Positions 428 to 15,225 of a stretch of DNA of 15,225 bases are shown piece after piece. The first letter of the stretch is position 1, and every line of letters starts with the position of its first letter. Under the pieces are notes generated by a model. It ran no database searches and was not told the DNA's origin. It saw only the letters and a list, made by a program, of their open reading frames with translations. Source of the stretch: Sandaracinaceae bacterium (GTDB taxonomy: Bacteria > Myxococcota_A > Polyangia > Polyangiales > Sandaracinaceae); the NCBI GenBank assembly GCA_044220955.1, contig JBGAQA010000135.1, forward strand, positions 1 through 15,225. The letters run 5' to 3'. The position numbers and the translations under genes were made by a program.

Positions 428-1888
428 TCAATCCGGAGCCTGCCGGACGCGCGACGGATCCCGCCGGAACAGGACGACGTACCAGTACGCCGGCCCGTAG
501 CGGACGACCTCGGCGACCTCGAACGTGCGCACGAGCCGCTCGTCGGCCGCGAGCTCGCGCTCGACGCGGAAGCCGCCGAGCGAGCGGAGCACCCCGCCCT
601 CCACGCGCGGCTCGGTCACCGAGTGCAGCACGATCGCATCGACCTCGCGCTGCGCGAGCAAGGAGAACGGGACCGGCTTCTCTCCGTGCCGGCCCTCGAG
701 GTGTCCGATCGAAGGATCGGTCACGCCCGCCAGATCGACCACGGGCAGATCGGACGCGTACCCGAGGTACCCGATGTCCACCAGCGCCACGCGGTGGGCG
801 CGCGCGCGCAGCGTGTCTGCGAGCCGCCGACCGACCGACTCGCGCGTCGCACCGGCCTCTCTCGCCGCCGGGATCTCCACGAAGAGGTCGAGGGCCGGGA
901 TCGCGCACGCGAGGACCGCGATCGCGAGCGCGCCCCGGGCGCCGATCCGCGGACGGCGCGCGAGATCCGAGACGCCCACGCCCACGAGCCACGCGTAGGC
1001 AGGGAGCACCGGCGTGAGCAGCCGGAAGCCGGGCATCCAGTCGCCGCCCGCGAGCAGCACGCACGCGAGGTGCACGACCACCAGCGTGGCCGGGACGCGG
1101 AGCGAGTAGGACTGCCGCACCGCGACGAACGCGGGCGCGATCCCGACGACGCCGAGGGCGACGAGCGTGCCGTGCCCGAGGTAGTACGCGCCGTTCGCGA
1201 GGTCCGAGGGCTTGGCCGAGACGGAGAGCGGGAGCGCAGTGCCGAAGAGCGCGAGCCGGAACGCGGCGACGGAGGCGAGCCCCACGAGCGCCAGCACGAG
1301 CGCCAGCGCACCGGCGCGCCGATCGCGGCGCATCGCCAGGCCGGCCAGCGTGATCACCCCGGGCACGGCCTCGGGGCGGAGCCAGGCGACGCTCGCGGCG
1401 GCGATGCCGAGCAGGAGCCCGTTCGGCTCGGGCCGCCGCATCGTCGCGAGGAGCGCGACGGTCACCGCGAGGATGGCCGCGCCCGTCTCGAGCCCCGCGA
1501 CCGCCCAGATGCCGAGCGACGACGACGACGCGAGGAACGCCGTGGCCGTCCACACCGCGCGCGAGCCGACGGCGCGCTGCCGCACCTGCGCGACGAGCAG
1601 TCCCACCGCGAGCGCCGCGCACACGAGCCCGACGAGCTTGGCGACGGAGACCGGATCCCCCCCGGCCAGGCGCGCCAGATACCCGGGCACGATGCAGAGC
1701 GGCCCGGTCAGCCCGTCGGTCGCGGGCCCGTCGTTCATCGTGTACCCGCGTCCCGCCGAAAGGCGCGTCGCGTAGCGCGCGACGATGAAGGCATCGTCGA
1801 CCGTGTACGGCCAGCTCGCCACCCCCGCCGCGAGCGTCGCGAGCGCCGCGAGCCAGGGTGCGAGGCGCGAGGTCGATTCGAGGCGCAT
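428..1888 (-). CDS. Polytopic membrane protein, probable GT-C glycosyltransferase (AftB-like / DDAxI family), ~486 aa
   Basis: ORF 428..1894; ATG at 1888 is the likely start. It has many hydrophobic helices, a first loop YTVDDAFIVARYATRLSAGRGYTMNDG...GLTGPL with the acidic DD pair typical of GT-C enzymes, and GLET, RPE and GGDWMPGFRLL motifs, followed by a C-terminal soluble domain (DIGYLGY, DLAGVTD). Confidence 0.75.
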   Translation of the reverse strand: MRLESTSRLAPWLAALATLAAGVASWPYTVDDAFIVARYATRLSAGRGYTMNDGPATDGLTGPLCIVPGYLARLAGGDPVSVAKLVGLVCAALAVGLLVAQVRQRAVGSRAVWTATAFLASSSSLGIWAVAGLETGAAILAVTVALLATMRRPEPNGLLLGIAAASVAWLRPEAVPGVITLAGLAMRRDRRAGALALVLALVGLASVAAFRLALFGTALPLSVSAKPSDLANGAYYLGHGTLVALGVVGIAPAFVAVRQSYSLRVPATLVVVHLACVLLAGGDWMPGFRLLTPVLPAYAWLVGVGVSDLARRPRIGARGALAIAVLACAIPALDLFVEIPAAREAGATRESVGRRLADTLRARAHRVALVDIGYLGYASDLPVVDLAGVTDPSIGHLEGRHGEKPVPFSLLAQREVDAIVLHSVTEPRVEGGVLRSLGGFRVERELAADERLVRTFEVAEVVRYGPAYWYVVLFRRDPSRVRQAPD

Positions 1889-1935
1889 CCGCACGAGCCC
1901 GGGTATTCTGCGTCGCGGAGCCGCCGCGCACCACG

Positions 1936-3054
1936 ATGGAGAACGGATCGCGCATCGGAAAGTACGCGCTCGAGGAGAAGCTCGGCGAAGGAGGCAACGG
2001 GCAGGTGTACGCGGCGCGCGACACCGTCCTCGGGCGCCGCGTGGCGCTGAAGCTGCTCCACGGCCAGCTCATCACCGACGCGACGGTCGCAGGGCGCTTC
2101 CGGCAGGAGGCGCAAGCGATGGCGCAGCTCAGCCATCCCAACGTCGTCGTCATGCACGACTTCGTCTCCGAGGGACCACGCTGGGCGATCGTGATGGAGC
2201 TGGTCGAGAGCGGCGAGACGCTCGGGAGCATCATCAAGCGCGAAGGCCGGCTCTCGCCTGCGCGGGCGCTGCGCATCGCGAGCGGCGTCGCCTCCGCGCT
2301 CGGCCACGCGCACGCGCGCGGTATCGTGCATCGCGACGTGAAGCCGGCGAACGTGCTCGTGGTGCGCGATCACGGCCAGGAGACGGCGAAGCTGACCGAC
2401 TTCGGCATCGCGCGGGTGATGCACGGCGAGCGACGCACGGGCGCGCAGCTGACGCTCGGGACCCTCTGGTACATCGCCCCCGAGCAGGCGCAGAGCTCGG
2501 GCGTCGACGCGCGGGCGGACGTCTACTCCCTCGGCGCCACGCTCTACGAGGCGATCACCGGGCGGGTGGTCTTTCCTTACGACAACGTCGCGCGCGTGCT
2601 CGCGGCGCACATCGGGGAGATCCCACCGCGCCCGGCGCAGCTCGTGCCCGGGATCCCCGCCTCCCTCGACCGGCTGGTGATGCGCTGCATCGCGAAGAGC
2701 CCCGACGAGCGGCCGCCCAATGGCGATGCGCTGCGCGCCCTGCTCGACGAGTGCCGGGCGGAGATCGAGGGGAGCAGCCCCGGCGCGATCCCGTCGACCC
2801 GGCCGATGGGCGAGATGCAGGCGAGCCTCGACGCGGCGCGCGCCGCGGCGAGCCCGTCGTATCGTCCGCCGGCGGGCACGACGCCGCCGGTGCTGCCGCT
2901 GAACGTCACGCCCACGACCGCGGCGCCGAGCGGCGGCATGAGCGCCGAGTCGGGTCGGCTCGGCCTCTACATCGGCCTCGGAGCGCTGACGCTGGTCACG
3001 AGCGCGTGCCTGCTCGGCAGCCTCCTCTTCGTGATCAGCCTCGTGCTGCGCTGA
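1936..3054 (+). CDS. Hanks-type serine/threonine protein kinase with Pro/Thr-rich linker and C-terminal transmembrane helix, ~372 aa
   Basis: Within ORF 1858..3054; ATG at 1936 (MENGSRIGKYALEEKLG) avoids overlap with the divergent gene. Motifs GEGGNGQV, VALK, FRQEA, HRDVKPAN, DFG, GTLWYIAPE, DVYSLG. It ends with hydrophobic LGLYIGLGALTLVTSACLLGSLLFVISLVLR. Confidence 0.95.
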   Translation: MENGSRIGKYALEEKLGEGGNGQVYAARDTVLGRRVALKLLHGQLITDATVAGRFRQEAQAMAQLSHPNVVVMHDFVSEGPRWAIVMELVESGETLGSIIKREGRLSPARALRIASGVASALGHAHARGIVHRDVKPANVLVVRDHGQETAKLTDFGIARVMHGERRTGAQLTLGTLWYIAPEQAQSSGVDARADVYSLGATLYEAITGRVVFPYDNVARVLAAHIGEIPPRPAQLVPGIPASLDRLVMRCIAKSPDERPPNGDALRALLDECRAEIEGSSPGAIPSTRPMGEMQASLDAARAAASPSYRPPAGTTPPVLPLNVTPTTAAPSGGMSAESGRLGLYIGLGALTLVTSACLLGSLLFVISLVLR

Positions 3055-3072: not shown

Positions 3073-4629
3073 TCAGCGCGCGTACGCGGCGACCCGCGCG
3101 CAGTCGAGCAGCGGGCGGCCGCTCGGGTTGCGGTACGGCGCGACACAGGTGCCGAGCAGCAGCGCGAGATCCTTGACGTCGATCCCCGGGCCGTTCGGCT
3201 CGATCGCGTAGTCCCCGTCAGGGGTGCCGGCCTCGAACACGTGCCACTCGTCCCCGGACGTGTCGTATCCGGCGAAGGCCGCCTCGATCTGCGCGTGGAC
3301 CCAGCGAACCTCGCGCGAGGTGAGCGGGACGCCGAGGTTGGCCGCCTCGACGATCAGCTGCACGACGTCCGACGGGTGCGCGTTGTCGGGCGCCGGCCCC
3401 GCCTCGAGAACGTCGAGCAACATCTCGATGCGCGTCGCGAGCCCGGCGAGCAGCTCGAGGGCGAGCGCGTCCTGCCCCGTGACGAGCGCCAAGGCTGCCG
3501 CCGCCTCGTGGTGCGAGCGCACGATCTGCATCGCCGAGTTGTTGAGCCCCATCGTCGGATCGGGGCTCGCTCCGGTCGGGGTGCCGCACCTGGCCCCGTA
3601 GGGATCGTTTCGAGACAGGAGCCGGATCGCGATCTGCGCGTGGCACTCGGCCACGGGCACGAAGTACGTCGCGAGCTGGCTCGTCGGCACGACGACGTTC
3701 AGATCGCGGTCGAGCGTCGCGATGTGGAAGTCGTCCCGCTCCACGCGCTGCGCCCACTCCTGATAGAGGCGCCGCGCTTCGACGATGTCGTCCTGGGCGC
3801 CGGGCTCGGTGAGCACGCCATCGCAGGCGTCGATCGCCGCGACGCCTCGCATGATGTGGCCCATGTCGTCCTTGCTGCGCTGCGCCTGGACGTAGAGGTC
3901 GCCCCAGCTCGGGTTGTCCGGGATGTGGATGAAGTACGAAGCGCCCCCGTCCACCCCGGGTCGGTTCGGGTCGTAGTCGATGTCCACGTCCCGATCGACG
4001 TCGTGCACCGACGCCGGATAGGCCGCGCGCGAAGTCAGCCCGATCTCGGGATCGGCCGCCCCGCGCCGCATCGAGAGCCGCCACGACGAGAGCCCGCGGA
4101 CCAGCCTCCGGACCAGGTGCTGATCCTGGTCGTGGTGCCAGAGGAGCCACGCGTAGCAGGCCCCTTCCATGATCTGGGGCGTGCGCAGGCCGTTGTTCTC
4201 CGCGCCGACGTCGACGTGCACGAAGGTGACGTGGCCCGATCGGAGCGAGATGCCCGTGCCGCTCCACCACGTCGCGTACCAGTAGCGCCCGCCGGGCGCC
4301 GACTCGGGCCAGCCGTGCACGCGGTCCTCCATGTAGTCGAACCAGCGGGTGCGATCGAGCAGCGCGAGGTAGTGATCCGTCGCGTCACCGAGCTCGGTCG
4401 AGGTCAGGGGAGCGCCGACGTCGGGGCGGGAGTAGTCGAAGGGCAGCACGCGCGTGTGCGACGGGAACACCCCCGTGGGCGTCGGCGGTCGCGAGCCGCC
4501 GTCCCGGCCGGGCGTCGGCGCGTCCGAGGGCGCGAGCGCGTCGTCGGGCCCGCCGTCCCGAGGAGTCGGCGCGGCGCCTGGCGAGCACGCGAGCGTGAGG
4601 AGCATGGTGGCGAGGGCGGCGCGCGTCAT
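3073..4629 (-). CDS. Uncharacterised probable lipoprotein, ~518 aa
   Basis: Within ORF 3073..4920. ATG at 4629 has GGAG about 8 nt upstream. MTRAALATMLLTLA-C resembles a short signal peptide with a lipobox-like Cys, followed by a Pro/Asp/Gly linker (RDGGPDDA...RDGGS) and a globular aromatic-rich domain. Codons are GC3-rich in this frame. Confidence 0.8.
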   Translation of the reverse strand: MTRAALATMLLTLACSPGAAPTPRDGGPDDALAPSDAPTPGRDGGSRPPTPTGVFPSHTRVLPFDYSRPDVGAPLTSTELGDATDHYLALLDRTRWFDYMEDRVHGWPESAPGGRYWYATWWSGTGISLRSGHVTFVHVDVGAENNGLRTPQIMEGACYAWLLWHHDQDQHLVRRLVRGLSSWRLSMRRGAADPEIGLTSRAAYPASVHDVDRDVDIDYDPNRPGVDGGASYFIHIPDNPSWGDLYVQAQRSKDDMGHIMRGVAAIDACDGVLTEPGAQDDIVEARRLYQEWAQRVERDDFHIATLDRDLNVVVPTSQLATYFVPVAECHAQIAIRLLSRNDPYGARCGTPTGASPDPTMGLNNSAMQIVRSHHEAAAALALVTGQDALALELLAGLATRIEMLLDVLEAGPAPDNAHPSDVVQLIVEAANLGVPLTSREVRWVHAQIEAAFAGYDTSGDEWHVFEAGTPDGDYAIEPNGPGIDVKDLALLLGTCVAPYRNPSGRPLLDCARVAAYAR

Positions 4630-4761: not shown

Positions 4762-4777
4762 TGGCACGGCTCTGGCA
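4762..4777 (+). promoter_or_regulatory. Putative sigma54 (-24/-12) promoter for the hybrid kinase operon
   Basis: TGGCACG-GCTC-TGGCA versus consensus TGGCACG-N4-TTGCW: one mismatch and exact GG-N10-GC spacing. It is intergenic, 70 bp upstream of the kinase start. Confidence 0.55.
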
Positions 4778-4846
4778 TAACCTGGCGCCGATGACGTTCT
4801 CGCCCGACACGGGCCAGCCTGTCCGGCGCGGGTCCCGGGGGCTGGA

Positions 4847-7800
4847 TTGAAGCGCCCCGAGATCCCCGCCGGCGAGGCGGCCCGACTCGATGCGCTGCGT
4901 TCGTACGGGGTGCTCGACACGGATCCCGAGCCCGCGTTCGACGCGCTGACGCGCCTCGCAGCCCACGTCGTCGGCGTGCCCGTCGCGCTCGTGTCGCTCG
5001 TGGACGCCGATCGTCAGTGGTTCAAGTCGCGCTACGGGCTCGAAGCGCCCGAGACACCCCGGGACGTGTCCTTCTGCGGACACGTGGTCGGCGCCGACGC
5101 AGCGTTGGTCGTCGCCGACGCCTGGGCCGATCCCCGCTTCGCCGACAACCCGCTGGTCACCGGCGAGCCGCGCGTCCGGTTCTACGTGGGCATGCCGCTC
5201 CGGACGGCCGACGGGCACGTGCTGGGCACCCTCTGCGCGATCGACCACGTCGCGCGCGAGGTGACCGACGCGCAGCGCGAGATGCTGCGCCTGCTCGCGG
5301 CGCAGGTCGTCGACCAGCTGGAGCTACGGCGCCGCAACCTGGCGCTGGCGCGCGCCACCGTCGAGCTCGACAAGTACCGCCGATTCTTCGACGTCGACAT
5401 CGATCTGCTCGCGACCTTCGACGCCGAGCTCTTCTTCGTCGAGTTCAACCCGGCCTGGCAGCGCGTGGTGGGGTGGACGCCGGACGAGCTCCGAGCCGTG
5501 AGCGCCGCCGAGCGGATCCACCCGGAAGACCTGCCGGCCACGCTCCGGGAGGCCGGGCGGATGCTTCGCGAGTCCGGCTCCACCGTCGCGTTCGAGCACC
5601 GCTTCGCGCACAGAGGCGGCGGGTGGGTCACCCTCTCGTGGAACGCGACCGCGCGGGACGGATTGTACTTCGCGTCCGCGCGCGACATGACGGCGGTGCA
5701 CGCCGCCCAGGCGGAGCTGCGGGCGTCGAACGCGCGCAGCGCCGAGCTCGCGGTGCGACTGAACGGGATCTTCGGGAGCGCGAACTACAGCATCATCGAG
5801 ACGGACCCCGAGGGGACGATCCGGGAGTTCAACGCCGCGGCCGAGCGCATGCTCGGCTACCGGCGGGACGAGGTCGTGGGCAAGGTCACCCCGGCCGTCA
5901 TCCACGACGTCGACGAGGTGACTCGCCGAGCGCAGGAGCTCACGACGGAGCTCGGAGTCCCCGTGGCGCCGGGCTTCGACGCGTTCGTCGCCAAGGCCCG
6001 GCGAGACGGCGCCGACGAGCGCGAGTGGACCTACGTCCGCAAGGACGGCTCGCGCTTCCCGGTCGAGCTGTCCGTGACCGTCCGCCGCGACCAGGCCGGC
6101 ACCATCGTCGGTTACCTCGGGATCGCGAGCGACATCAGCGAGCGACACCGCGCTCGCGCGCTGCTCCAGCAGAGCGAGCGCAGGACGCGCGCGATCGTCG
6201 ACGGCTCCCCCGACGCGATCGTGACGATCGACGAGGCCGGCACCATCCAGAGCGTCAATCCGTCGGTCGAGCGACTGCTCGGCTACGCGCGCGCGGAGCT
6301 CGTCGGGCAGAACGTCAAGGTGCTGATGCCGTCCCCACACCGCGAGGCCCACGATCATTACATCGAGCGCTTCATCCGGACGGGCGAGCGGAAGATCATC
6401 GGGATCGGGCGCGAGGTCGAGGCGATGCGCCGGGACGGGAGCACGTTCCCGGCGGACCTCACGATCACGGAGCTCCACTTCGACGGCCGCCGGCACTTCG
6501 CGGGCGTCCTTCGCGACATCTCCGATCGCAAGCGCGTGGACCTGCTGCAGTCCGAGTTCGTCTCCACCGTGAGCCACGAGCTGCGCACCCCCTTGACCTC
6601 CATCCGCGGCTCGCTGGGCCTCATCGCCGGCGGGATCACGGGCGAGCTCCCCGCAGAGGCGAAGGAGTACGTCGAGATCGCTCTCTCCAACAGCGATCGG
6701 CTCGTCCGTCTGATCAACGACCTCCTCGACATGGAGAAGATGCAGTCCGGCCACATGGAGTTCCGTCCGCGCGCGACGGATCTCGCGAGCGCCGTCCGAG
6801 CCGCGATCGAGCAGAACGAAGCGTTCGCCACGGCGCATCGTGTGCGCGTCGTCCTGGCTGCCCCCGTCCCCGCCGGTGAGGTCGTCGTCGATCCCGACCG
6901 CCTGGCGCAGGTGCTGACGAACCTCATCTCGAACGCCGCCAAGTTCTCCCCGCCGGACTCGCTCGTCGAGGTGACGGTGACCCGCATCGCGCGCCGCTTC
7001 CGGATCGCGATCCGCGATCACGGCCCCGGAATCCCGCCGGAGTTCCGCGACCGCATCTTCCAGCGTTTCGCCCAGGCCGACGCCTCCACCACGCGTGCCA
7101 AGGGCGGGACCGGGCTCGGCCTGGCGATCTCCAAGGCGATCGTCGAGAAGATGCACGGCCGGATGGGCTTCGAGCCCGCCGAGGGCGGCGGCACGGTGTT
7201 CTTCTTCGAGCTTCCGTACCTCGCGCCCCTCGACGCGCCGCCGCGCGATGCGCCGAGCGCTGGCAGGGTGCTGATCTGCGAGGACGACCCGGACGTCGGC
7301 GCGGCCCTCGAGCGGTTGCTCGCGAGCGCCGGCTACCTCACGCACACCGCGCCCACCGTCGAGCGCGCGCGGCGACTGCTCGATCGTTTCGCGTACGACG
7401 CCATCACGCTCGATCTCGTCCTGGCGGACGGCGAGGCGACCCCGCTGATCGCGGAGGTGCGCGGTTCCTCGAACAACCGATCGGCCCCCATCATCGTGGT
7501 GTCCGGCTCGAGCAGCCCGCTGGGCCGAGCCGTCGTGTGGGTGAGCGACGTGCTCGCCAAGCCGTTCGTCGAGGCGCGCCTGCTCGCTGCCCTGAAGACC
7601 GCGATCGCCACGTGTCGCAGCCGCGCGCCTCGACTCCTGCACGTCGAGGACGACGCCGACATCCGGCGCGTCGTCAAGCGGACGCTTCCGGACGCGTGGA
7701 CGATCGTCGCGGCGCCGACCGCGCAGGCCGCGCGAAGCGCCCTGGCCGAGGGGGCTTTCGACGTCGTGCTGCTCGATCTGTCGCTCCCGGACGGCGCCGG

Positions 7801-7990
7801 CGACGACCTGCTGCAGCTCGTCGGCCGCGCACAGGTGATCGTCTTCTCCGCGTCGGACGCGCCCGAGGAGCTCGGGCGCCGCGTCGCTGCGGCGCTCGTG
7901 AAGTCGAAGGCGACGCCGGCCGACGTGCGCGACGCCATCGTGGCCGCCGTCGCGCACGCCGTGACGAACCGGCGAGGAGCGACGGAATGA
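4847..7990 (+). CDS. Cytoplasmic hybrid sensor histidine kinase: GAF-PAS-PAS-PAS(FixL-like)-HisKA-HATPase-REC-REC, 1047 aa
   Basis: TTG start. GAF (EAARLDALRSYGVLDT, SFCGH, DPRFADNPLV, RFYVGMPL, GTLCAID), three PAS/PAC domains, H-box FVSTVSHELRTPLTSI (His577), N-box QVLTNLISNAAKFS, G1 DHGPGI, F-box IFQRFAQAD, G2 GGTGLGLAI, and two receivers (VLICEDD...ITLD...VVS...AKPF; LLHVEDD...LLD...VFS...VKS). No obvious TM helix. Confidence 0.96.
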   Translation: MKRPEIPAGEAARLDALRSYGVLDTDPEPAFDALTRLAAHVVGVPVALVSLVDADRQWFKSRYGLEAPETPRDVSFCGHVVGADAALVVADAWADPRFADNPLVTGEPRVRFYVGMPLRTADGHVLGTLCAIDHVAREVTDAQREMLRLLAAQVVDQLELRRRNLALARATVELDKYRRFFDVDIDLLATFDAELFFVEFNPAWQRVVGWTPDELRAVSAAERIHPEDLPATLREAGRMLRESGSTVAFEHRFAHRGGGWVTLSWNATARDGLYFASARDMTAVHAAQAELRASNARSAELAVRLNGIFGSANYSIIETDPEGTIREFNAAAERMLGYRRDEVVGKVTPAVIHDVDEVTRRAQELTTELGVPVAPGFDAFVAKARRDGADEREWTYVRKDGSRFPVELSVTVRRDQAGTIVGYLGIASDISERHRARALLQQSERRTRAIVDGSPDAIVTIDEAGTIQSVNPSVERLLGYARAELVGQNVKVLMPSPHREAHDHYIERFIRTGERKIIGIGREVEAMRRDGSTFPADLTITELHFDGRRHFAGVLRDISDRKRVDLLQSEFVSTVSHELRTPLTSIRGSLGLIAGGITGELPAEAKEYVEIALSNSDRLVRLINDLLDMEKMQSGHMEFRPRATDLASAVRAAIEQNEAFATAHRVRVVLAAPVPAGEVVVDPDRLAQVLTNLISNAAKFSPPDSLVEVTVTRIARRFRIAIRDHGPGIPPEFRDRIFQRFAQADASTTRAKGGTGLGLAISKAIVEKMHGRMGFEPAEGGGTVFFFELPYLAPLDAPPRDAPSAGRVLICEDDPDVGAALERLLASAGYLTHTAPTVERARRLLDRFAYDAITLDLVLADGEATPLIAEVRGSSNNRSAPIIVVSGSSSPLGRAVVWVSDVLAKPFVEARLLAALKTAIATCRSRAPRLLHVEDDADIRRVVKRTLPDAWTIVAAPTAQAARSALAEGAFDVVLLDLSLPDGAGDDLLQLVGRAQVIVFSASDAPEELGRRVAAALVKSKATPADVRDAIVAAVAHAVTNRRGATE

Positions 7991-8358
7991 AGATCCTGCT
8001 GATCGACGACGAGCCGGACATCCGCAAGATCGGGCGCCTCAGCCTGGAGGCCGTCGGAAAGTTCGAGGTCGTCCTGGCGGCCGGCGCCGCGGAGGGGCTG
8101 GCGCTCGCCCGGACGGAGCGGCCCGACGCGATCTTGCTGGACATGATGATGCCCGGCATGGACGGGCTCGCCGCGCTGGGCGAGCTCCGCGCCGCGCCCG
8201 ATCTGGCGACGGTGCCTGTGATCTTCATGACGGCCCGCGTGCAGCGTCACGAGGTCGAGCGGTACCTGGGCCTCGGGGCGGCGGGCGTCATCCAGAAGCC
8301 GTTCGATCCGATGACGCTGCCGGACGAGGTCCGCCGTCTGCTGGCCACCCGCCGCTGA
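7987..8358 (+). CDS. Single-domain (CheY-like) response regulator, 123 aa
   Basis: ATG at 7987 overlaps the kinase stop (ATGA). MKILLIDDEPDI...ILLDMMMPGMDG...VIFMTA...IQKPFDPMTL contains all receiver catalytic residues and no output domain. Confidence 0.95.
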   Translation: MKILLIDDEPDIRKIGRLSLEAVGKFEVVLAAGAAEGLALARTERPDAILLDMMMPGMDGLAALGELRAAPDLATVPVIFMTARVQRHEVERYLGLGAAGVIQKPFDPMTLPDEVRRLLATRR

Positions 8359-8376
8359 CGCGCCGGCGCCGGACGA

Positions 8377-8392
8377 CGGCACGGAGACTGCT
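8377..8392 (+). promoter_or_regulatory. Sigma54-like -24/-12 motif in the convergent gap, facing the 3' end of the sigma54 activator gene
   Basis: CGGCACG-GAGA-CTGCT with GG-N10-GC spacing and two mismatches to TGGCACG-N4-TTGCW. No convincing sense gene follows it. Confidence 0.35.
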
Positions 8393-8541
8393 GCACTCTC
8401 GCCATGCAGCCTCTCCTCGGCGTCCGATCCGTCTCCAGACGTGGCCCGCGCACCGCACGTCGTCGGCTCGAGCCCACAGCTCGACGCGGGAGCTGGGAGG
8501 TGCGCCTGGGCGAGCGGGCGGCGCACGTCGGCGGCCATGCG

Positions 8542-9888
8542 TCAGCGGAGGCCGTGACGCCGCAGCATGTCCCACAGATGCGAGCGGTCCATGTCCGCGT
8601 CCCGCGCCGCCTGCGAGACGTTGCCCCCGGCGCGCTCGAGGAGCCGCGGCAGGTACGCCGCCTCGAACTGGTTCAGCACGCGGAGCCGGGCCTCCTTGTA
8701 GGGCTGCTCCAGCGTGGGCTCGAGCGCGATGTGCAGGCCCGGGACCGCGACCTGCGCCGGCGTGCCGGCCGGGATGCCGGGAGACGAGTCTTCGAGGACG
8801 GGCGTCTCCCCCATGGCGAGCGTGGCGTCGACGACGTTGCGCAGCTCCCGCACGTTGCCCGGCCAGTAGTGCCGCAGGAACGTGCCCATCGTCTCGGGCG
8901 AGATCAACTGCTCGATCGGTCCCGTGTACCCGGCGTCGCGCGCGAAGTGCTCGATGAGCAGCGGGATGTCGTCGAGCCGCGCGCGCAGCGGTGGGATCTC
9001 GAGCCGTACGACCGCGACGCGATAGAAGAGGTCCAGGCGGAACTTGCCGGCGTTGACCTCGGCGCGAAGATCCCGGTTGGTCGCCGAGACGACGCGGACG
9101 TCGACCGCGATCTCGTCGCGCCCACCGAGCCTGCGGAACCGCCGCCGCTCGAGGGCGCCGAGCAGCGCGGGCTGGAGCGACTCCGGTAGCTCGCCGATCT
9201 CGTCGAGGAAGAGGGTCCCGCCGTCTGCGCGCTCGAAGGCGCCGACGTGCTTGCGGTCGGCACCGGTGAAGGCGCCGCGCTCGTGCCCGAAGAGCTCGCT
9301 CGCGACGAGCGTCGGCGAGAGCGATGCGCAGTCCACCGTCTCGAAGGCTCGCCCGGCCCGCGGCCCGAGCTCGTGCAGAGCGCGGGCGAAGCGCTCCTTC
9401 CCCGTCCCGGACTCGCCGGTCAGGAGCGTCGACACCTCGCTCTGCGCCGCGCGCTGCAGCTGGGCCAGGAGGCGTCGCATGATGGGCGAGCGTGCGAAGA
9501 GCCCGCCGAGGGCCTCGCCGCCGTGGATCTCGACGTCGACGTCCTCACCATCGCGGATGCGCAGCGTGGTGCGCCCGATCGTCAGGCCGGTGCCCGGCGG
9601 GACCAGCGCTCTCTCGACGCGGACCGCGCCGACGAACGTCCCGTTCGTCGACCCTCGGTCCTCGATCGACACGCCCTCGGGCTCCCGGCTGAGCTGCGCG
9701 TGAAACCGCGACACGGTCGGGTCCACGAGCACGACGTCGTTGCCGTGGGCCGTCCCGATCGACAGGCGATCGCTCGTCGCGACGCACGTGCGCCCGGCGT
9801 CGGGGCCGTCGGTGACGTCCACGCAGAGGGAACGGACGCTGACCCGTGTGGCCCCCTTGCCCGGCAGCGTGTGCGTCTCTCGTTCCAT
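8542..9888 (-). CDS. FHA-domain sigma54-dependent enhancer-binding protein (FHA-AAA+-Fis HTH), ~448 aa
   Basis: ORF 8542..9897; ATG at 9888 with GAGG upstream. FHA (IGT...NDVVLVDPTVSRFH...DRGSTNGTFV), Walker A GESGTGKE, ELFGHERGAFTGA, Walker B FLDEIGE, FRLDLFYRV, WPGNVREL, and HTH GGNVSQAARDADMDRSHLWDML. Confidence 0.96.
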   Translation of the reverse strand: MERETHTLPGKGATRVSVRSLCVDVTDGPDAGRTCVATSDRLSIGTAHGNDVVLVDPTVSRFHAQLSREPEGVSIEDRGSTNGTFVGAVRVERALVPPGTGLTIGRTTLRIRDGEDVDVEIHGGEALGGLFARSPIMRRLLAQLQRAAQSEVSTLLTGESGTGKERFARALHELGPRAGRAFETVDCASLSPTLVASELFGHERGAFTGADRKHVGAFERADGGTLFLDEIGELPESLQPALLGALERRRFRRLGGRDEIAVDVRVVSATNRDLRAEVNAGKFRLDLFYRVAVVRLEIPPLRARLDDIPLLIEHFARDAGYTGPIEQLISPETMGTFLRHYWPGNVRELRNVVDATLAMGETPVLEDSSPGIPAGTPAQVAVPGLHIALEPTLEQPYKEARLRVLNQFEAAYLPRLLERAGGNVSQAARDADMDRSHLWDMLRRHGLR

Positions 9889-9913
9889 CCCCGCCACCTC
9901 GGCCCAGCCGCGC

Positions 9914-9942
9914 AGCGTAGGGGGCGCGTGACGTCCTGTAAA
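9914..9942 (-). promoter_or_regulatory. Putative sigma70-type promoter of the FHA-sigma54 activator gene
   Basis: The minus strand reads TTTACA-N17-TACGCT (consensus TTGACA-N17-TATAAT). It is an AT-containing island in very GC-rich DNA, about 25 nt upstream of the ATG at 9888. Confidence 0.5.
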
Positions 9943-9956
9943 CGGCCATGCGGCGG

Positions 9957-11279
9957 TCAGAGCCCTGCGGTCGGGTCGATCCAGCCGGCGCTCTTGCTCA
10001 CGGCGGCGATGCGCGTGACCAGCGCGCCCAGCTCGACCGGCTTGCCGACGATGTCGCTCACGCCGAGGACCTCGAAGCGCCAGCGCTCGGCGGCGGGGAG
10101 GCGGCCCGTGATCACGATCACGCGCGCTTCGTTCCCGCCGGGGATGTCTCGCAGCGCGGTGAGCGTCGCGATCCCGTCGAGCCCGGGCAGCTCGTAGTCG
10201 AGGAGCACCAGGTCGGGCGGATGCGCGAGCGCGCTGCGCACCGCGTCCGTCCCGCTCTGCGCGCCGCGGACCTCGATGCCGACGCCGAGCAGGGCGAGCT
10301 GGGCCGCACGGACCGAGAGGCGACGAAACGCCGCGTCGTCCTCCACCACCAGGACGCGGAGCGGGCGCTCGCGGATCCTCGGGTAGATGAGCTCCTCGAA
10401 CGTGTCTCCCAGGTCGCGGGGCGGGTGGCTCATCGCGGCGATCGCCGCCATCAGCGCGTGCTCGAGCTCGCGGCCGTTCGTGAACCGCTCGGCCGGCTCC
10501 CGCGCGAGGGCCCGCAGCAGCACGGGCTCGAGCGCCGCGAGATCGGGGCGCGTCGCGCCGAGGCGTGCCGGCACGTCGTCCACGCGGCGCCCTCCGGCCT
10601 TCTGAAAGGGCGCGAAGCCGGTGAGCATCTCGAACGCCATGCAGCCGAACGCGAAGACGTCTGCGGACGCCGACATCGGCGCGGCCTCCGCGAGCTGCTC
10701 GGGTGCCATGTAGCGGGGGGTCCCCATCTCCGCCCGCTCCGACTCGCTGCCCGCCTGCGTCACGAGCCCGAAGTCCACGATGACGGGCCGCCCCGTCCCC
10801 TCCTCGATGACGATGTTGGCGGGCTTGATGTCCCGATGAACGAGGCCGGCCGCGTGGACGTCGCCGAGCCCGGAGGCGAGCTGCCGGAGGATGGTCAAGG
10901 CGCGGGCGGTGGGCACCAGCGCCTGGTGCGCGGCGTGGGCGCGCTGGATCGCCGCGAGGTTCGGCCCCGCCACGTACTCCATCGCGATGAAGAACGAGGC
11001 GTCGCTGCGGCCGAACCCGTACACCTGGACGACGAAGGGGCTCCGGACCCGCGCGAGCGCCGCCGCCTCGGTCCGAAGGCGCTCGACGGCCCCGGGGATC
11101 TGCTGCTCGAGCTCCATCGTCTTGAGCGCGGCGATGCGGTCGAGGTCCAGATCGCGCGCGCGGTACACCGTGCCCATCCCACCCGAGCCCAGCCGCTCGA
11201 GCAGCTCGTAGCGCCCCACGATCTGGGCGGGCCGGCTCGCCGCCGCGGGCGCAGCGGGCCTGGTGACGTCGTCATCCAC
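9957..11279 (-). CDS. Ser/Thr protein kinase fused to a C-terminal receiver (REC) domain, paralog A, ~440 aa
   Basis: ORF 9957..11294. GTG at 11279 is preferred because GGGAGG lies 5 nt upstream; ATG 11294 is the alternative. Kinase motifs LGSGGMGTV, AALK, HRDIKPAN, DFG, GTPRYMAPE, DVFAFG. REC motifs LRVLVVEDD...LVLLDYELPGLDG...VITG...GKPV. No TM helix. Confidence 0.94.
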   Translation of the reverse strand: MDDDVTRPAAPAAASRPAQIVGRYELLERLGSGGMGTVYRARDLDLDRIAALKTMELEQQIPGAVERLRTEAAALARVRSPFVVQVYGFGRSDASFFIAMEYVAGPNLAAIQRAHAAHQALVPTARALTILRQLASGLGDVHAAGLVHRDIKPANIVIEEGTGRPVIVDFGLVTQAGSESERAEMGTPRYMAPEQLAEAAPMSASADVFAFGCMAFEMLTGFAPFQKAGGRRVDDVPARLGATRPDLAALEPVLLRALAREPAERFTNGRELEHALMAAIAAMSHPPRDLGDTFEELIYPRIRERPLRVLVVEDDAAFRRLSVRAAQLALLGVGIEVRGAQSGTDAVRSALAHPPDLVLLDYELPGLDGIATLTALRDIPGGNEARVIVITGRLPAAERWRFEVLGVSDIVGKPVELGALVTRIAAVSKSAGWIDPTAGL

Positions 11280-11358
11280 GCGCGCCTCCCGCATGGCGCT
11301 CGGCGGCGCTCGGTCGGATCGACGTGGGCCGGGTCGCGGGATCGGGCATCATGCGGCG

Positions 11359-11682
11359 ATGACCGACGCGAGGAGCGCGCTGCTGCGGGAGGCCTTGCGC
11401 GCGCTGCGCGAGGAGCAGGGTCCGGGGCTGCGCGCGCGTGCCGCCGCCCTCGCCGACGCGCTGACACGGCTCGAGAGCGCGTCGGGCCCGGCGTTCGCCG
11501 AGGCCCGCGCCGAGGCCCACCGGCTGCGCGGCACCGCGGGCTCGTACGGCCTGGCGGCGATCTCCGCGTCGGCCGACGCGATCGAGGTGGCCATCGACGC
11601 GGCCGCCGAGACGGGCGCCCTGCCGGCCGAGCTCCCTGCGCTCGCCGCCGCCCTCGCCCGGGCGGCCGACGACGAATCGTGA
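11359..11682 (+). CDS. Stand-alone Hpt (histidine phosphotransfer) domain protein, 107 aa
   Basis: Within ORF 11263..11682; ATG at 11359 avoids overlap with the divergent kinase. All-helical Ala/Leu-rich sequence with the Hpt signature EAHRLRGTAGSYGL...IS..A..IE (His54, codon 11518-11520). Confidence 0.9.
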   Translation: MTDARSALLREALRALREEQGPGLRARAAALADALTRLESASGPAFAEARAEAHRLRGTAGSYGLAAISASADAIEVAIDAAAETGALPAELPALAAALARAADDES

Positions 11683-11750
11683 ACGGCGGAGTCGGGCCCT
11701 CATGCTCGCCGACTTCCAAGCACGCCGTGTGCCGGGATACCTTCACCCCC

Positions 11751-13052
11751 GTGGCTCCGAACGACGGCCAGGTCCTGCAGGCAGGCACCCTCATCGATGC
11801 TCGCTTCCGCGTGGAGCGCGAGCTCGCGTCCGGGGCGATGGGCGTCGTCTACCGAGCCCGGGACGTCTTGCTCGAGCGCGACACCGCGCTGAAGGTGCTG
11901 GTGGGCGCTTCGCGCAACGTCCGCGATCGCCTGCGGCGCGAGGCGGCGGCGCTCGCGACGCTGCGCCACGAGCACGTCGTCCAAGTGTACACGTTCGGCG
12001 ATCACGAGGGGGCGCCCTATTTCGCGATGGAGTTCGTCGACGGCCGGGCGCTCTCCGACCTGATCGACGAGCACTACGTCCGGCACACGTCGCCGGTTCC
12101 GCTCTACCGCGCGGTCCAGATCCTCCGAGAGCTCGGCGAGGGGCTGACCGCCGTCCACGCGGCCGGGCTCGTGCATCGCGACGTCAAGCCGCACAACGTC
12201 GTCGTCGAGAACCGCACCGGCCGCTCCGTGCTCGTCGACTTCGGAGCCGCCAAGCTGGTCAGCGAGCCCTACGACGGCACGATCATCGGCACGCCACACT
12301 ACCTGGCGCCGGAGGTCATCCAAGGCCAGCCCCCGACCCCGCGCGCCGACATCTACTCGCTCGGCTGCCTCGCGTTCGAGCTGCTGACGGGCCGCGTCCC
12401 CTTCGAGGCGACGACGCTCGGCCAGATCCTCAGCCTCCACCAGAGGGCCCCGATCCCCCGGCCGTCCTCGATCCGCGCCGAGCTCGCGCCGGTGGACGAC
12501 CTGATCGAGCGCATGCTGCAGAAGAACCCCGCGGACCGCACCGCGAACGGCAGCCTCATCCGGCACGCGCTCGACGACCTCATCGCGGGCATGGCCCGCG
12601 AGCCGAAGCGCGACGAGCCGGTGAGCGAGTCGACCGTCCTGCCCGGCGAGCAGGGCCTCCGTGTTCTGGTCGTCGACGACGACCCGGCGTTCGCCCGCCT
12701 GGCCGCGCGCGCCGCGCAGATCGCCTTCGCCGAGGTGCAGGCGTCGGTCTCTCGCGCCGGGTCCGGTGAGGCCGCGCTCGCGAACGCCGCGCGAAAGCGG
12801 CCCGACATCATCGTGCTCGACTATCTCCTGCCCGACATGAACGGGGTCGAGATCCTGTCGCGGATCCGGTCGGGGTCCGAGGGGTTCCACCCCGAGATCC
12901 TGGTGGTGAGCAGCACGCTCGCGCGGGGCGAGCAGTGGCGCTTCTCGATCCTCGGTGTGCGCGACTTCCTCGCCAAGCCCATCGCGTTTCCCGACCTCGT
13001 CACGGCGATCCACGAGCTGGGCAAGCGGCGCGGCTGGTCGAGCCCGACGTGA
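11751..13052 (+). CDS. Ser/Thr protein kinase fused to a C-terminal receiver (REC) domain, paralog B, ~433 aa
   Basis: This is the C-terminal part of ORF 9948..13052. Likely GTG start at 11751; an in-frame GTG at 11679 overlapping the Hpt stop is the alternative. Kinase motifs LASGAMGVV, TALK, HRDVKPHN, DFG, GTPHYLAPE, DIYSLG. REC motifs LRVLVVDDD...IIVLDYLLPDMNG...VVSS...AKPI. Confidence 0.94.
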   Translation: MAPNDGQVLQAGTLIDARFRVERELASGAMGVVYRARDVLLERDTALKVLVGASRNVRDRLRREAAALATLRHEHVVQVYTFGDHEGAPYFAMEFVDGRALSDLIDEHYVRHTSPVPLYRAVQILRELGEGLTAVHAAGLVHRDVKPHNVVVENRTGRSVLVDFGAAKLVSEPYDGTIIGTPHYLAPEVIQGQPPTPRADIYSLGCLAFELLTGRVPFEATTLGQILSLHQRAPIPRPSSIRAELAPVDDLIERMLQKNPADRTANGSLIRHALDDLIAGMAREPKRDEPVSESTVLPGEQGLRVLVVDDDPAFARLAARAAQIAFAEVQASVSRAGSGEAALANAARKRPDIIVLDYLLPDMNGVEILSRIRSGSEGFHPEILVVSSTLARGEQWRFSILGVRDFLAKPIAFPDLVTAIHELGKRRGWSSPT

Positions 13053-13178: not shown

Positions 13179-15224
13179 ATGCCTCATCCGTGGAAATTCG
13201 TGCGCGCCGGCGGCTTCGACCAGGTCGAGATCACCTCCGGCGCGGATCTCGCGTCACTCTCGGAGCTCGATCAGAAGCTCTGGGTCGCCCTCGCATGCCC
13301 GACGACGGGCATCGACTTCGACAAGCGCACGCTCGCGCTCATCGACACGGACGGGGACGGCCGTATCCGCGCCCCCGAGCTTCTGCGCGCGGTGGAGTGG
13401 GCTTGCCGCGTCGTGCGCGATCCGGACGACCTCACCAAGAGTGAGGGCGCCCTCGCGCTGAGCTCGATCGACGCCGAGGACGACGAGGGCAGGCTCCTGC
13501 TCGCCACCGCGAAGGCCCTGCTGAAGAGCCTCGGCAAGGGGGACGCCAAGAAGATCTCGGTGGAAGAGACGGGGCGCGCCCTCGAGGCGTTCTCGAAGGA
13601 GCGGCTCAACGGTGACGGCGTCGTGCCCGAGACCGCGACGGACGACGCGGCGCTCGTCGCCGTGATCAAGGACGTCCTCGCTTGCTCCCCTTCGCCCGCC
13701 AAGGATCGGTCGGGGGCCGACGGCGTCAGCAAGGCCGCTCACGACGCGTTCTTCGAGGCCGTCGACGCGCACGCCGCCTGGCTCGCGAAGGGCGACGACG
13801 CGGCGGTTCGCGTGCTGGGCGCCGCCACCGACGACGCCCACGCGGCGTACGCGAAGGTCCGCGGGAAGCTCGCCGACTACTTCGCGCGTGCGAGGGTGGC
13901 CGCGTACGACCCGCGCGCGCTGGCGGCCGTGAACGGCGAGGAGAAGCAGTACCTCGAGCTCGCAGCCAAGGATCTGGACGTCACCGCAGCCGAGGTCGAG
14001 AGGCTTCCCATCGCGCAGGTGACGGGCGACCGTCCGCTCTCTCTCGCGCAGGGCGTGAACCCGGCCTGGACCGATCGGGTCGCCGACTTCCGGACGAAGG
14101 TCGTCGTGCCCTTGCTCGGAGAGAAGGCGTCGCTGACCGAGGCCGACCTGCGCGCCGTCGGGGCCAAGCTGGCCGCCTACTCGGACTGGCAAGCGACGAA
14201 GGCCGGCGCGTCGGTCGAGAAGCTCGGGGCGGCGCGCGTGCGCGAGCTCGCCACGGGCGATGCGCGCACCAAGCTCGCAGCGCTCATCGCCGCGGACCAC
14301 GCGGAGGAGCCGAAGGCCAAGGCGATCGAGTCCGTCGAGAAGCTCGTCCGCCTCAACCGTGACCTCATGACGCTCGTGAACAACTTCGTGTCGTTCCGCG
14401 ACTTCTACACGCGCAAGGGGCCCGCGATCTTCCAGATCGGCACCCTGTTCCTCGACACGCGCGCCTGCGAGCTCTGCGTCCGCGTCGCGGACGGCGCCCG
14501 GCACGCGACGATGGCGCCGCTCTCGAACAGCTACCTCGTGTACGCCGACGTGAAGAACGCCAAGGGCGAGACGATGCAGATCGCAGCCGCCATGACCGCC
14601 GGTGACGTGGACAACCTCATGGTGGGCCGCAACGGCGTGTTCTACGATCGCGCGGGCAACGACTGGGACGCGACCGTCACGCGCATCGTCGACAACCCGA
14701 TCAGCATCCGCCAGGCCTTCTGGGCCCCGTACAAGAAAGCCCTGCGTGCCGTCGAGAGCGCGCTCAACAAGCGCGCCGCCGACGCGGCGGCGGCCAGCGA
14801 CGCCCAGCTCACCAGCGGCGCCGAGAGCGTCGCGGCCGGCACGGCACCGACGACGCCCGCTCCCTCGCGCTTCGACATCGGGACGATCGCCGCCCTCGGC
14901 GTGGCGGTCGGCGGCATCACCGCGGCGCTCGGCGCGCTCCTCAGCGCGTTCTTCGGCCTCGGCCTGTGGATGCCGCTCGGCCTCATCGGCCTCATCGGCC
15001 TCGTCGGACTCGGCTTCGTCCGACTCGATGTCATCGGCGATGTCGCCGGCGGTGTCGTCCCCGGGCACCTGCGTGATGTCCTCGTCGGTCTCCTCGCAGT
15101 CCTCCGCACCCTGCTCGTCGGACACCTCGTCGTCGGGCTTGCCGTTGGCGGCGGCCATCGCCTTGAACATCGGATGGTCACCGACGGTGTGCGGCGGCAC
15201 CTTGGCGACCGCGGGGGCGGCCTC
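13179..15224 (+). CDS. Large uncharacterised protein with N-terminal EF-hand-like loop and C-terminal hydrophobic helices; no stop in window, native sequence probably ends near 14996-15005
   Basis: Absent from the ORF track because the frame is open to the edge. Manual translation: MPHPWKFVRAGGFDQVEITSGADLASLSELDQKLWVALACPTTGIDFDKRTLALIDTDGDGRIRAPELL...NNFVSFRDFY...AIFQIGTLFLDTRAC...VGRNGVFYDRAGNDWDATVTRIVDNPISIRQAFWAPYKK...FDIGTIAALGVAVGGITAALGALLSAFFGLGLWMPLGLIGL. Strong GC3 bias up to ~15000. Confidence 0.88.
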   Translation, partial: MPHPWKFVRAGGFDQVEITSGADLASLSELDQKLWVALACPTTGIDFDKRTLALIDTDGDGRIRAPELLRAVEWACRVVRDPDDLTKSEGALALSSIDAEDDEGRLLLATAKALLKSLGKGDAKKISVEETGRALEAFSKERLNGDGVVPETATDDAALVAVIKDVLACSPSPAKDRSGADGVSKAAHDAFFEAVDAHAAWLAKGDDAAVRVLGAATDDAHAAYAKVRGKLADYFARARVAAYDPRALAAVNGEEKQYLELAAKDLDVTAAEVERLPIAQVTGDRPLSLAQGVNPAWTDRVADFRTKVVVPLLGEKASLTEADLRAVGAKLAAYSDWQATKAGASVEKLGAARVRELATGDARTKLAALIAADHAEEPKAKAIESVEKLVRLNRDLMTLVNNFVSFRDFYTRKGPAIFQIGTLFLDTRACELCVRVADGARHATMAPLSNSYLVYADVKNAKGETMQIAAAMTAGDVDNLMVGRNGVFYDRAGNDWDATVTRIVDNPISIRQAFWAPYKKALRAVESALNKRAADAAAASDAQLTSGAESVAAGTAPTTPAPSRFDIGTIAALGVAVGGITAALGALLSAFFGLGLWMPLGLIGLIGLVGLGFVRLDVIGDVAGGVVPGHLRDVLVGLLAVLRTLLVGHLVVGLAVGGGHRLEHRMVTDGVRRHLGDRGGGL
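14979..15005. repeat. 9-bp tandem repeat (GGCCTCATC x2 + GGCCTCGTC) at the apparent coding-strand switch
   Basis: ggcctcatc ggcctcatc ggcctcgtc reads GLI-GLI-GLV on + and DEA-DEA-DEA on -. Confidence 0.8.
14979..15224 (-). other. Internal fragment of an unrelated acidic low-complexity protein on the minus strand (probable chimeric contig end)
   Basis: The minus frame reads EAAPAVAKVPPHTVGDHPMFKAMAAANGKPDDEVSDEQGAEDCEETDEDITQVPGDDTAGDIADDIESDEAESDEADEADEA with GC3-rich codons. The + frame here gains many T-ending codons (gat, ggt, cgt, ctt, gtt, cat), which is typical of an antisense shadow. Confidence 0.6.
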
Positions 15225-15225
15225 C

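Follow-up and report, generated by a model that had tools for sequence, protein, structure and literature searches.

A myxobacterial phosphorelay locus with receiver-fused Hanks-type kinases as its probable outputs

Two-component relays and Ser/Thr kinases are both abundant in myxobacteria, which encode hundreds of each kind of protein, but little is settled about the links between these two networks. We analysed a 15,225-nucleotide stretch of DNA (the window) from a Sandaracinaceae bacterium (assembly GCA_044220955.1), in which six adjacent genes encode a hybrid histidine kinase (HK), a free receiver (REC), a sigma54 activator of the bacterial enhancer-binding protein (bEBP) type with an FHA input domain, a stand-alone phosphotransfer protein (Hpt) and two Hanks-type Ser/Thr kinases with a C-terminal receiver, K1 and K2. 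Judging from their sequences, K1 and K2 are probably the terminal outputs of a His-Asp phosphorelay that comprises the neighbouring hybrid HK, free receiver and Hpt. Because the receivers of the kinases are intact and their pairing with HK and Hpt genes recurs across related myxobacteria, the relay likely controls the kinases directly. The system would be an enzyme-output phosphorelay with a Hanks kinase as the enzyme, conserved across one order, and a variant of a known relay type. An earlier sequence-only reading had proposed a tier from HK, REC and Hpt to the kinases and a further tier from the kinases to the bEBP; the first of these is supported by neighbourhood conservation in five families and by intact receiver and kinase residues, and support for the second is much weaker.

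K1 and K2, which are 41% identical across 424 columns, belong with their relatives to what we call the kinase-REC family (a Hanks-type Ser/Thr kinase fused to a C-terminal receiver). An alignment of 89 members shows no change in the kinase's catalytic Lys, Glu, Asp and Asn or in its Mg-binding Asp (89/89), and the receiver keeps its acidic pair in 86, phospho-Asp in 88, Ser/Thr in 86 and Lys in 88; the receivers of K1 and K2 keep all of these. The helix-4 region of the receiver is also strongly conserved in this alignment. AlphaFold models of both proteins are confident outside the linker (mean pLDDT 91 for K1 and 92.8 for K2). A sequence search of the PDB and a fold search with the K1 model, in which the receiver was not searched alone, gave only kinase-domain matches among the matches listed, so that a solved kinase-receiver structure may exist; in the fold search PknB was aligned over 250 residues with Z 31.9 and rmsd 1.9. 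Mutual-information analysis of 159 kinase-REC sequences returned noise only.

How widespread is the family? A search with K2 found matches in 20 of the 24 genomes of the same taxonomic family, and a receiver profile found them in 45 of 301 genomes of the order and in 5 of 401 genomes of a phylum sample, all five within the order; the Chondromyces apiculatus genome carries a member (E 5e-48). We fetched 40 regions (for 56 K2 matches outside the source genome of the window, G000), one further region and 48 regions for receiver-profile matches. Three of these lack an intact kinase-REC gene and two hold two copies, which leaves 88 genes in 51 genomes. A metagenome scan added eight loci with two full family members, which were excluded from this count, and a GTDB-wide scan of 1/64 parts with a generic kinase motif, which returned mostly plain kinases, served as a control only. 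A FastTree phylogeny of 246 kinase domains groups 47 of the 49 kinase-REC rows, with a support of 0.82. Kinase-receiver genes also adjoin HK genes in two genomes of other phyla, one of Thermoanaerobaculia (L103; L-numbers denote fetched comparison loci) and one of Burkholderiales (L155), and the design may have arisen more than once. The kinase-REC protein of L013 (family f17) is extended at its C terminus by a segment that weakly matches TerB, and several of its f17 relatives have open reading frames (ORFs) of similar extra length.

The kinase-REC genes are closely linked to relay genes. An Hpt lies within 3 kb of 45 of the 88 genes, compared with none of the 196 receiver-less kinases of the source genome, and an Hpt or hybrid HK lies that close to 60 of the 88, compared with 4 of the 196. 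Among 76 receiver-less kinases from other bacteria both counts are zero. In the source genome as a whole, an Hpt lies that close to only 24 of 6030 genes, whereas about half of the kinase-REC family has one; of the seven kinase-REC genes in that genome, five have an Hpt domain within 3 kb. When the distance is widened to 6 kb, Hpt neighbours are seen in all five families, in 19 of the 23 genera and in 38 of the 51 genomes. These Hpt calls come from our own model; 46 of 49 pass the Pfam cut-off and Pfam adds two more. The Hpt may stand alone, be fused to a receiver or form part of an HK, and it occurs on either side of the kinase-REC gene; a single inherited gene order therefore does not account for the linkage.

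The identity of the neighbouring relay proteins points the same way. When the 51 HKs within 6 kb of family genes were assigned to their best match in the source genome, 17 fell to the window HK and 20 to an HK beside another kinase-REC gene; 37 of 51 thus match two of the 59 source-genome HKs, both beside kinase-REC genes. A window-type free REC lies within 6 kb of 15 of the 88 genes, and window-type HK, window-type free REC and Hpt together accompany 13 of them, in four families and in shuffled order. Two complete or nearly complete genomes, G205 and G299, carry the cassette. The window Hpt itself scores 27.1 bits against a Pfam cut-off of 24.6, and its best matches among the fetched Hpt domains adjoin window-type HKs or kinase-REC genes. 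In a separate subclade, the kinase-REC gene is divergent from a small Hpt-REC gene (C77:81007-83201 of the source genome, C-numbers being its contigs; L033, L036-L039). This pair is a minimal two-gene form of the module, and in several such loci it lies beside ruvC.

Does the relay always end on kinases? A reverse search with the window HK type gave 53 matches in 33 other genomes. Among 20 further window-type HK regions, one holds a kinase-REC gene (L253) and six end on an Hpt-REC-REC-GGDEF protein; this output, with no kinase-REC gene, occurs at seven loci (L058, L247, L255, L256, L262-L264). Because the same HK type ends on GGDEF proteins in these seven loci, its output is swappable. The HK thus belongs to a portable relay module, for which a diguanylate cyclase is a common output; in the window, the output is probably the two kinases.

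What is the likely path of the phosphate? The HK would autophosphorylate in response to a cytoplasmic signal sensed by its GAF and PAS domains. Phosphate would then pass from one of the HK receivers (or the free receiver, whose role may be that of an intermediate or a sink) to His54 of the Hpt, and from there to Asp366 of K1 and Asp357 of K2. The receiver is predicted to pack on the kinase, and its phosphorylation would shift kinase activity, our guess at the direction being relief of inhibition.

Several points weigh against direct control of the kinases by the relay. Neither an Hpt nor a hybrid HK lies within 3 kb of 28 of the 88 kinase-REC genes, and only 10 of the 53 window-type HKs, plus that of L253, lie beside known kinase-REC genes. 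K1 has Ile at the aromatic switch position of its receiver, which is aromatic in 80 of 89 family members. The source genome holds other Hpts and receivers that are potential true partners. The fixed packing of receiver and kinase is predicted from the pTM of the models (0.88 for K1 and 0.89 for K2), because a lower value would be expected if two domains, of about 270 and 130 residues, moved independently, but pTM expresses model confidence. As to the counts, related genomes are non-independent samples, HK types were assigned by best match, which is not orthology, and our Hpt model was partly trained on the same loci, so that distant Hpts may have been missed in the controls.

We then consider the alternatives. 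In a three-tier cascade, the relay would switch K1 and K2, these would phosphorylate the bEBP or an FHA ligand, and sigma54 transcription would follow, maybe with feedback on the HK operon through a sigma54-like site at 4762. We consider this cascade unlikely, although parts of the neighbourhood evidence favour it. FHA-bEBPs generally adjoin kinases: 11 of the 15 in the source genome have a kinase within 3 kb, compared with 3 of the 30 bEBPs of other types and 933 of the 6030 genes overall, so a kinase-to-bEBP tier is possible for the window locus, where K1 and K2 are the only kinases that close to the bEBP. Two sigma54-like sites also flank the HK-REC unit. In contrast, the proposal that kinase-REC proteins act on FHA-bEBPs fails as a family rule. 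Of the 88 kinase-REC genes, 3 have an FHA-bEBP within 3 kb, as do 10 of the 196 plain kinases, so it is no commoner beside the family, and all six gene types occur together at none of the 88 relatives; the six-gene order is kept by no relative searched.

The company kept by the bEBP's own relatives cuts both ways. Within 3 kb of 40 close relatives (37 regions from the top of the match list and three already fetched), we found a HAMP/class III cyclase in 20 cases, a pseudo-receiver kinase in 15 and a kinase-REC gene in only three. The usual kinase of this bEBP clade forms a separate clade, and it too bears a receiver-like tail, though a degenerate one (hhalign probability 94%, 48 columns). The three FHA-bEBPs beside kinase-REC genes (L001, L007 and L008) all fall, in a quick tree, within the 16-member subclade of the window bEBP, which we estimate to be more than chance. 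L007 and L008 unite a window-type HK, an Hpt-REC-GGDEF protein, a K1-like kinase and the bEBP, but they also keep the usual cyclase and pseudo-receiver kinase. A conserved module, in which an FHA-bEBP diverges from a gene pair made up of a HAMP/class III cyclase and, after it, a Ser/Thr kinase whose receiver-like tail is degenerate, is seen at L042, L044, L046-L048, L050-L052, L055, L056, L067, L071, L076, L078, L007 and L008, and around the second bEBP copy of the source genome (C11:6604-11114), which is thus in the usual clade context; in L044 a FecR-domain protein follows the cyclase-kinase module. If kinases do act on FHA-bEBPs, this module may be a likelier place for it than the window.

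Could the bEBP read a phosphorylated peptide at all? Its AAA+ domain scores 209.5 bits (PF00158), HTH_8 falls just under the cut-off (20.7 against 22), and the Walker A and B motifs and the sigma54-contacting loop are present in the translation. Aligned to Rv1747 and GarA, its FHA domain carries Thr49 at the position of the first conserved Arg, which binds phosphothreonine (pThr), and keeps Ser63, Arg64, His66 and Asn85 (the Ser-x-x-His and Asn motifs); Arg64 might compensate in part for the missing Arg. The first Arg is present in 9 of 57 FHA-bEBPs, a set weighted towards the window bEBP's clade, compared with 31 of 34 other FHA domains. It is replaced in the remaining 48 of 57, including 7 of the 15 of the source genome, and the ligand of such FHA-bEBPs may differ from a standard pThr peptide. 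A predicted complex of K1 with the FHA domain scored 0.00, which gave no answer and is evidence neither way. Taken on its own, regulation of the bEBP by K1 or K2 is a tentative and rather unlikely proposition. The full circuit, in which the relay acts through K1 and K2 and a non-canonical FHA-bEBP on adjacent promoters including the sensor operon, with feedback, is doubtful; as part of that doubtful reading, it would have arisen when the locus took in an activator from a clade that already relies on a receiver-tailed kinase.

Promoter-like sequences bear on the same question. A sigma70-like pair in the K1-bEBP gap resembles, by eye, pairs before the clade members of L044, L046, L047 and C11, a hint that the bEBP may have its own promoter and a further point against the cascade; a strict sigma70 scan found no sites, this pair included. 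The sigma54-like site at 8377 matches the consensus of the source genome, is spaced from the following ATG as numerous other sites of that genome are, and faces the 3' end of the bEBP gene. Such a convergent site follows 6 of 42 clade genes, compared with 2 of 5972 gene calls of the source genome (the window bEBP included), and the site at 8377 is likely the bEBP's local target. The bEBP is best read as a separate unit inside the cassette, with a putative promoter of its own and its own likely convergent sigma54 target. The site at 4762 could place the HK operon under sigma54. At a stricter cut, no such site was found before 204 signalling genes in related loci, and sites scoring at least 11.5 with our matrix, which was trained on the source genome, lie before its 6048 genes in 61 sense and 14 antisense cases. 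A palindrome upstream of five bEBP relatives was rejected as a binding site, being absent from the source genome.

What would the convergent sites transcribe? In L046, L047 and L055 the site precedes a conserved Thr/Pro-rich ORF of 64-68 residues, basic and unannotated (L046:10706-10909, minus strand; L047:10254-10595, minus strand; L055:5761-6045, plus strand), with weak look-alikes in L001 and C11. Its product could be a ligand of the FHA domain or a substrate of the kinase. The frame behind the site in the window, L007 and L008 runs antisense into the bEBP, leaving little or no room for a gene (window 8377-8545; L007:11912; L008:11707), and antisense, self-limiting transcription is possible from sites of this type. 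The ORF from 8404 was tried as a homologue of the L046 peptide and not accepted (a six-residue match only, E 0.11). A contig from an independent study (run X2) carries about 830 extra bases at 8484-8516, from a sibling population, and run X1 branches there too; because of these extra bases, the longer allele may hold the bEBP target gene.

Alternatively, the receivers of K1 and K2 could take phosphate with no gating of the kinase, as sinks or for docking or localisation, or the flow could be reversed, with the kinases tuning the relay by phosphorylating Thr or Ser of the HK, the Hpt or the receivers. Action of Ser/Thr kinases on HKs and response regulators is the documented direction in the cross-talk section of a 2025 review (PMC12189002), the cassette has no other obvious output, and no substrate gene is conserved beside the kinase-REC family, whose neighbours vary. 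On the other hand, the helix-4 region is conserved, and the models predict it to form a helix held in place on the kinase. It is through this region that terminal receivers signal, whereas it is disordered in the intermediate CckA receiver (PMC9981736). We regard a non-gating or reversed role as quite unlikely. A chance pile-up in a kinase-rich genome (about 200 Hanks kinases, seven of them kinase-REC proteins, 59 HKs and 15 FHA-bEBPs), with HK-REC serving one of four REC-GGDEF genes or another receiver elsewhere and K1 and K2 answering other kinases, draws on the unshared six-gene order and on the closest relatives of K2 (L001-L004), which precede a different hybrid HK, and is very improbable given the rarity of Hpt genes outside the family and the recurrence of the window-type HK, REC and Hpt set across families. 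Direct relay control of K1 and K2 is in our view the likeliest reading.

The layout of the locus is given in Table 1. Pfam and ORF calls confirm one hybrid HK, one stand-alone Hpt and five REC domains in six adjacent genes, with no GGDEF, CheA or DNA-binding response regulator among them, as the sequence-only reading had it, and the Hpt phospho-acceptor is His54 in the translation. The claim of six contiguous genes holds for adjacency and not for a single operon: there are three transcription units, HK-REC (plus strand), bEBP and K1 (minus) and Hpt-K2 (plus), with HK-REC converging on the bEBP and K1 diverging from Hpt-K2. Position 4762, taken before as the start, is a sigma54-like site and not a gene start. 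Two run X2 contigs join HK-REC-bEBP and bEBP-K1-Hpt-K2, which rules out faulty assembly as the source of the gene order.

Table 1. Genes and promoter-like sites of the locus, in window coordinates.
Feature	Position	Strand	Details and basis
Weak sigma54-like -24/-12 site	4762..4777	+	85 nt upstream of HK start; core score 11.6/21.2
Hybrid histidine kinase (HK)	4847..7990	+	GAF, PAS domains, HisKA, HATPase, REC, REC (Pfam)
Single-domain free receiver	7987..8358	+	Start overlaps HK stop; Pfam
Strong sigma54-like site	8377..8392	+	27 nt upstream of ATG at 8404; core score 19.1/21.2
FHA-AAA+-HTH sigma54 activator (bEBP)	8542..9897	-	Pfam; FHA aligned to Rv1747, GarA
Sigma70-like -35/-10 pair	9914..9942	-	K1-bEBP gap, 17-nt spacer; read by eye
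K1, soluble Hanks-type kinase with C-terminal receiver	9957..11294	-	Asp366; Pfam, AlphaFold
Stand-alone Hpt	11359..11682	+	His54; divergent from K1, upstream of K2; Pfam
K2, soluble Hanks-type kinase with C-terminal receiver	11751..13052	+	Asp357; Pfam, AlphaFold

No clear membrane helix was found in the six proteins (highest 19-residue hydropathy 0.96-1.82); the top value is that of the HK, which is soluble. No specific NCBIfam family scored above cut-off for K1, K2, bEBP or Hpt among the matches listed. The window is the entire contig C39 (JBGAQA010000135.1) of a 7.5-Mb genome with 72.5% GC. Its sequence is present in sludge and bioreactor metagenomes, and none of the listed runs containing it is an RNA dataset. 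A third Ser/Thr kinase, receiver-less and with a hydrophobic C-terminal stretch (hydropathy 2.49), lies at 1858-3054 (plus strand); its best matches listed are other source-genome kinases, at about 40%. Three long ORFs have no Pfam or NCBIfam match: 3073-4629 (minus), a probable lipoprotein divergent from the HK; 428-1894 (minus), a hydrophobic, membrane-type protein; and 13179-15225 (plus), EF-hand-like by reading and cut at the contig end, with a 67% identical paralogue on C257.

How does the system compare with known ones? Jelsbak reportedly described in 2005 Myxococcus xanthus FHA-bEBPs such as MXAN_4899, of FHA-AAA+-HTH type and with Ser/Thr kinase genes nearby. The window bEBP shares this architecture and neighbourhood, the M. 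xanthus proteins being compared by description only, and its FHA domain lacks the first conserved Arg, like most of its own clade. Response regulators with an enzyme as output are familiar from CheB and PleD/WspR. The Hpt-REC-REC-GGDEF loci have the same HK type, the same free receiver type and a similar Hpt as the window, which differs in that it has no cyclase output, its Hpt stands alone and kinase-REC genes adjoin.

Protein-kinase EC numbers in two-component proteins are given only as 'probable' in the available text on P2CS (PMC2716373), and the words 'threonine', 'serine' and 'Pkinase' do not occur in the main text of a survey of myxobacterial two-component genes (PMC4603909). The cross-talk section of the 2025 review treats the action of Ser/Thr kinases on two-component proteins as well as HsbR, but mentions no Hanks kinase with a fused receiver (PMC12189002). 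Likewise, none of the listings returned by our literature searches described such a kinase in a bacterial relay; catalogue entries for the architecture probably exist, and supplements may contain it. The kinase-REC family offers a route from two-component signalling to Ser/Thr kinases, the reverse of the cross-talk treated in that section (PMC12189002), and places it in a single soluble protein of about 430 residues whose putative upstream Hpt and HK can be named. Whether Asp phosphorylation gates a Hanks kinase can be addressed with four purified proteins.

The closest bacterial parallel is HptB-HsbR-HsbA of Pseudomonas aeruginosa where hybrid HKs act through a stand-alone Hpt on a receiver fused to a Ser kinase/phosphatase and set its activity (PMC5085249, PMC12189002). 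The window locus likewise has a hybrid HK, a stand-alone Hpt and a receiver-fused kinase. In HsbR, however, the receiver is N-terminal, a phosphatase is present and the one known target is an anti-anti-sigma factor, whereas K1 and K2 have a C-terminal receiver and no phosphatase; neither a phosphatase domain nor an anti-anti-sigma target gene is found by Pfam among the six genes, and 86 neighbouring genes scanned include one SpoIIAA-like neighbour (L194). The kinase fold of HsbR is, we take it, of the anti-sigma type, and that of K1 and K2 is the Hanks fold. With HptB-HsbR, a bacterial relay from an Hpt to a Ser kinase has been described before, though presumably with a different kinase fold.

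In yeast, the Sln1-Ypd1-Ssk1 His-Asp relay feeds a mitogen-activated protein kinase cascade, Ssk1 controlling a separate kinase in trans, and Rim15-type kinases carry a C-terminal receiver-like domain. Unlike Ssk1, the window proteins hold receiver and kinase in one chain, and nothing shows a kinase-to-kinase cascade. The likeness lies in a His-Asp relay that probably feeds Hanks-type kinases, with Rim15 resembling K1 and K2 in its C-terminal receiver-like domain: a bacterial parallel to the eukaryotic design of His-Asp relays feeding protein kinases.

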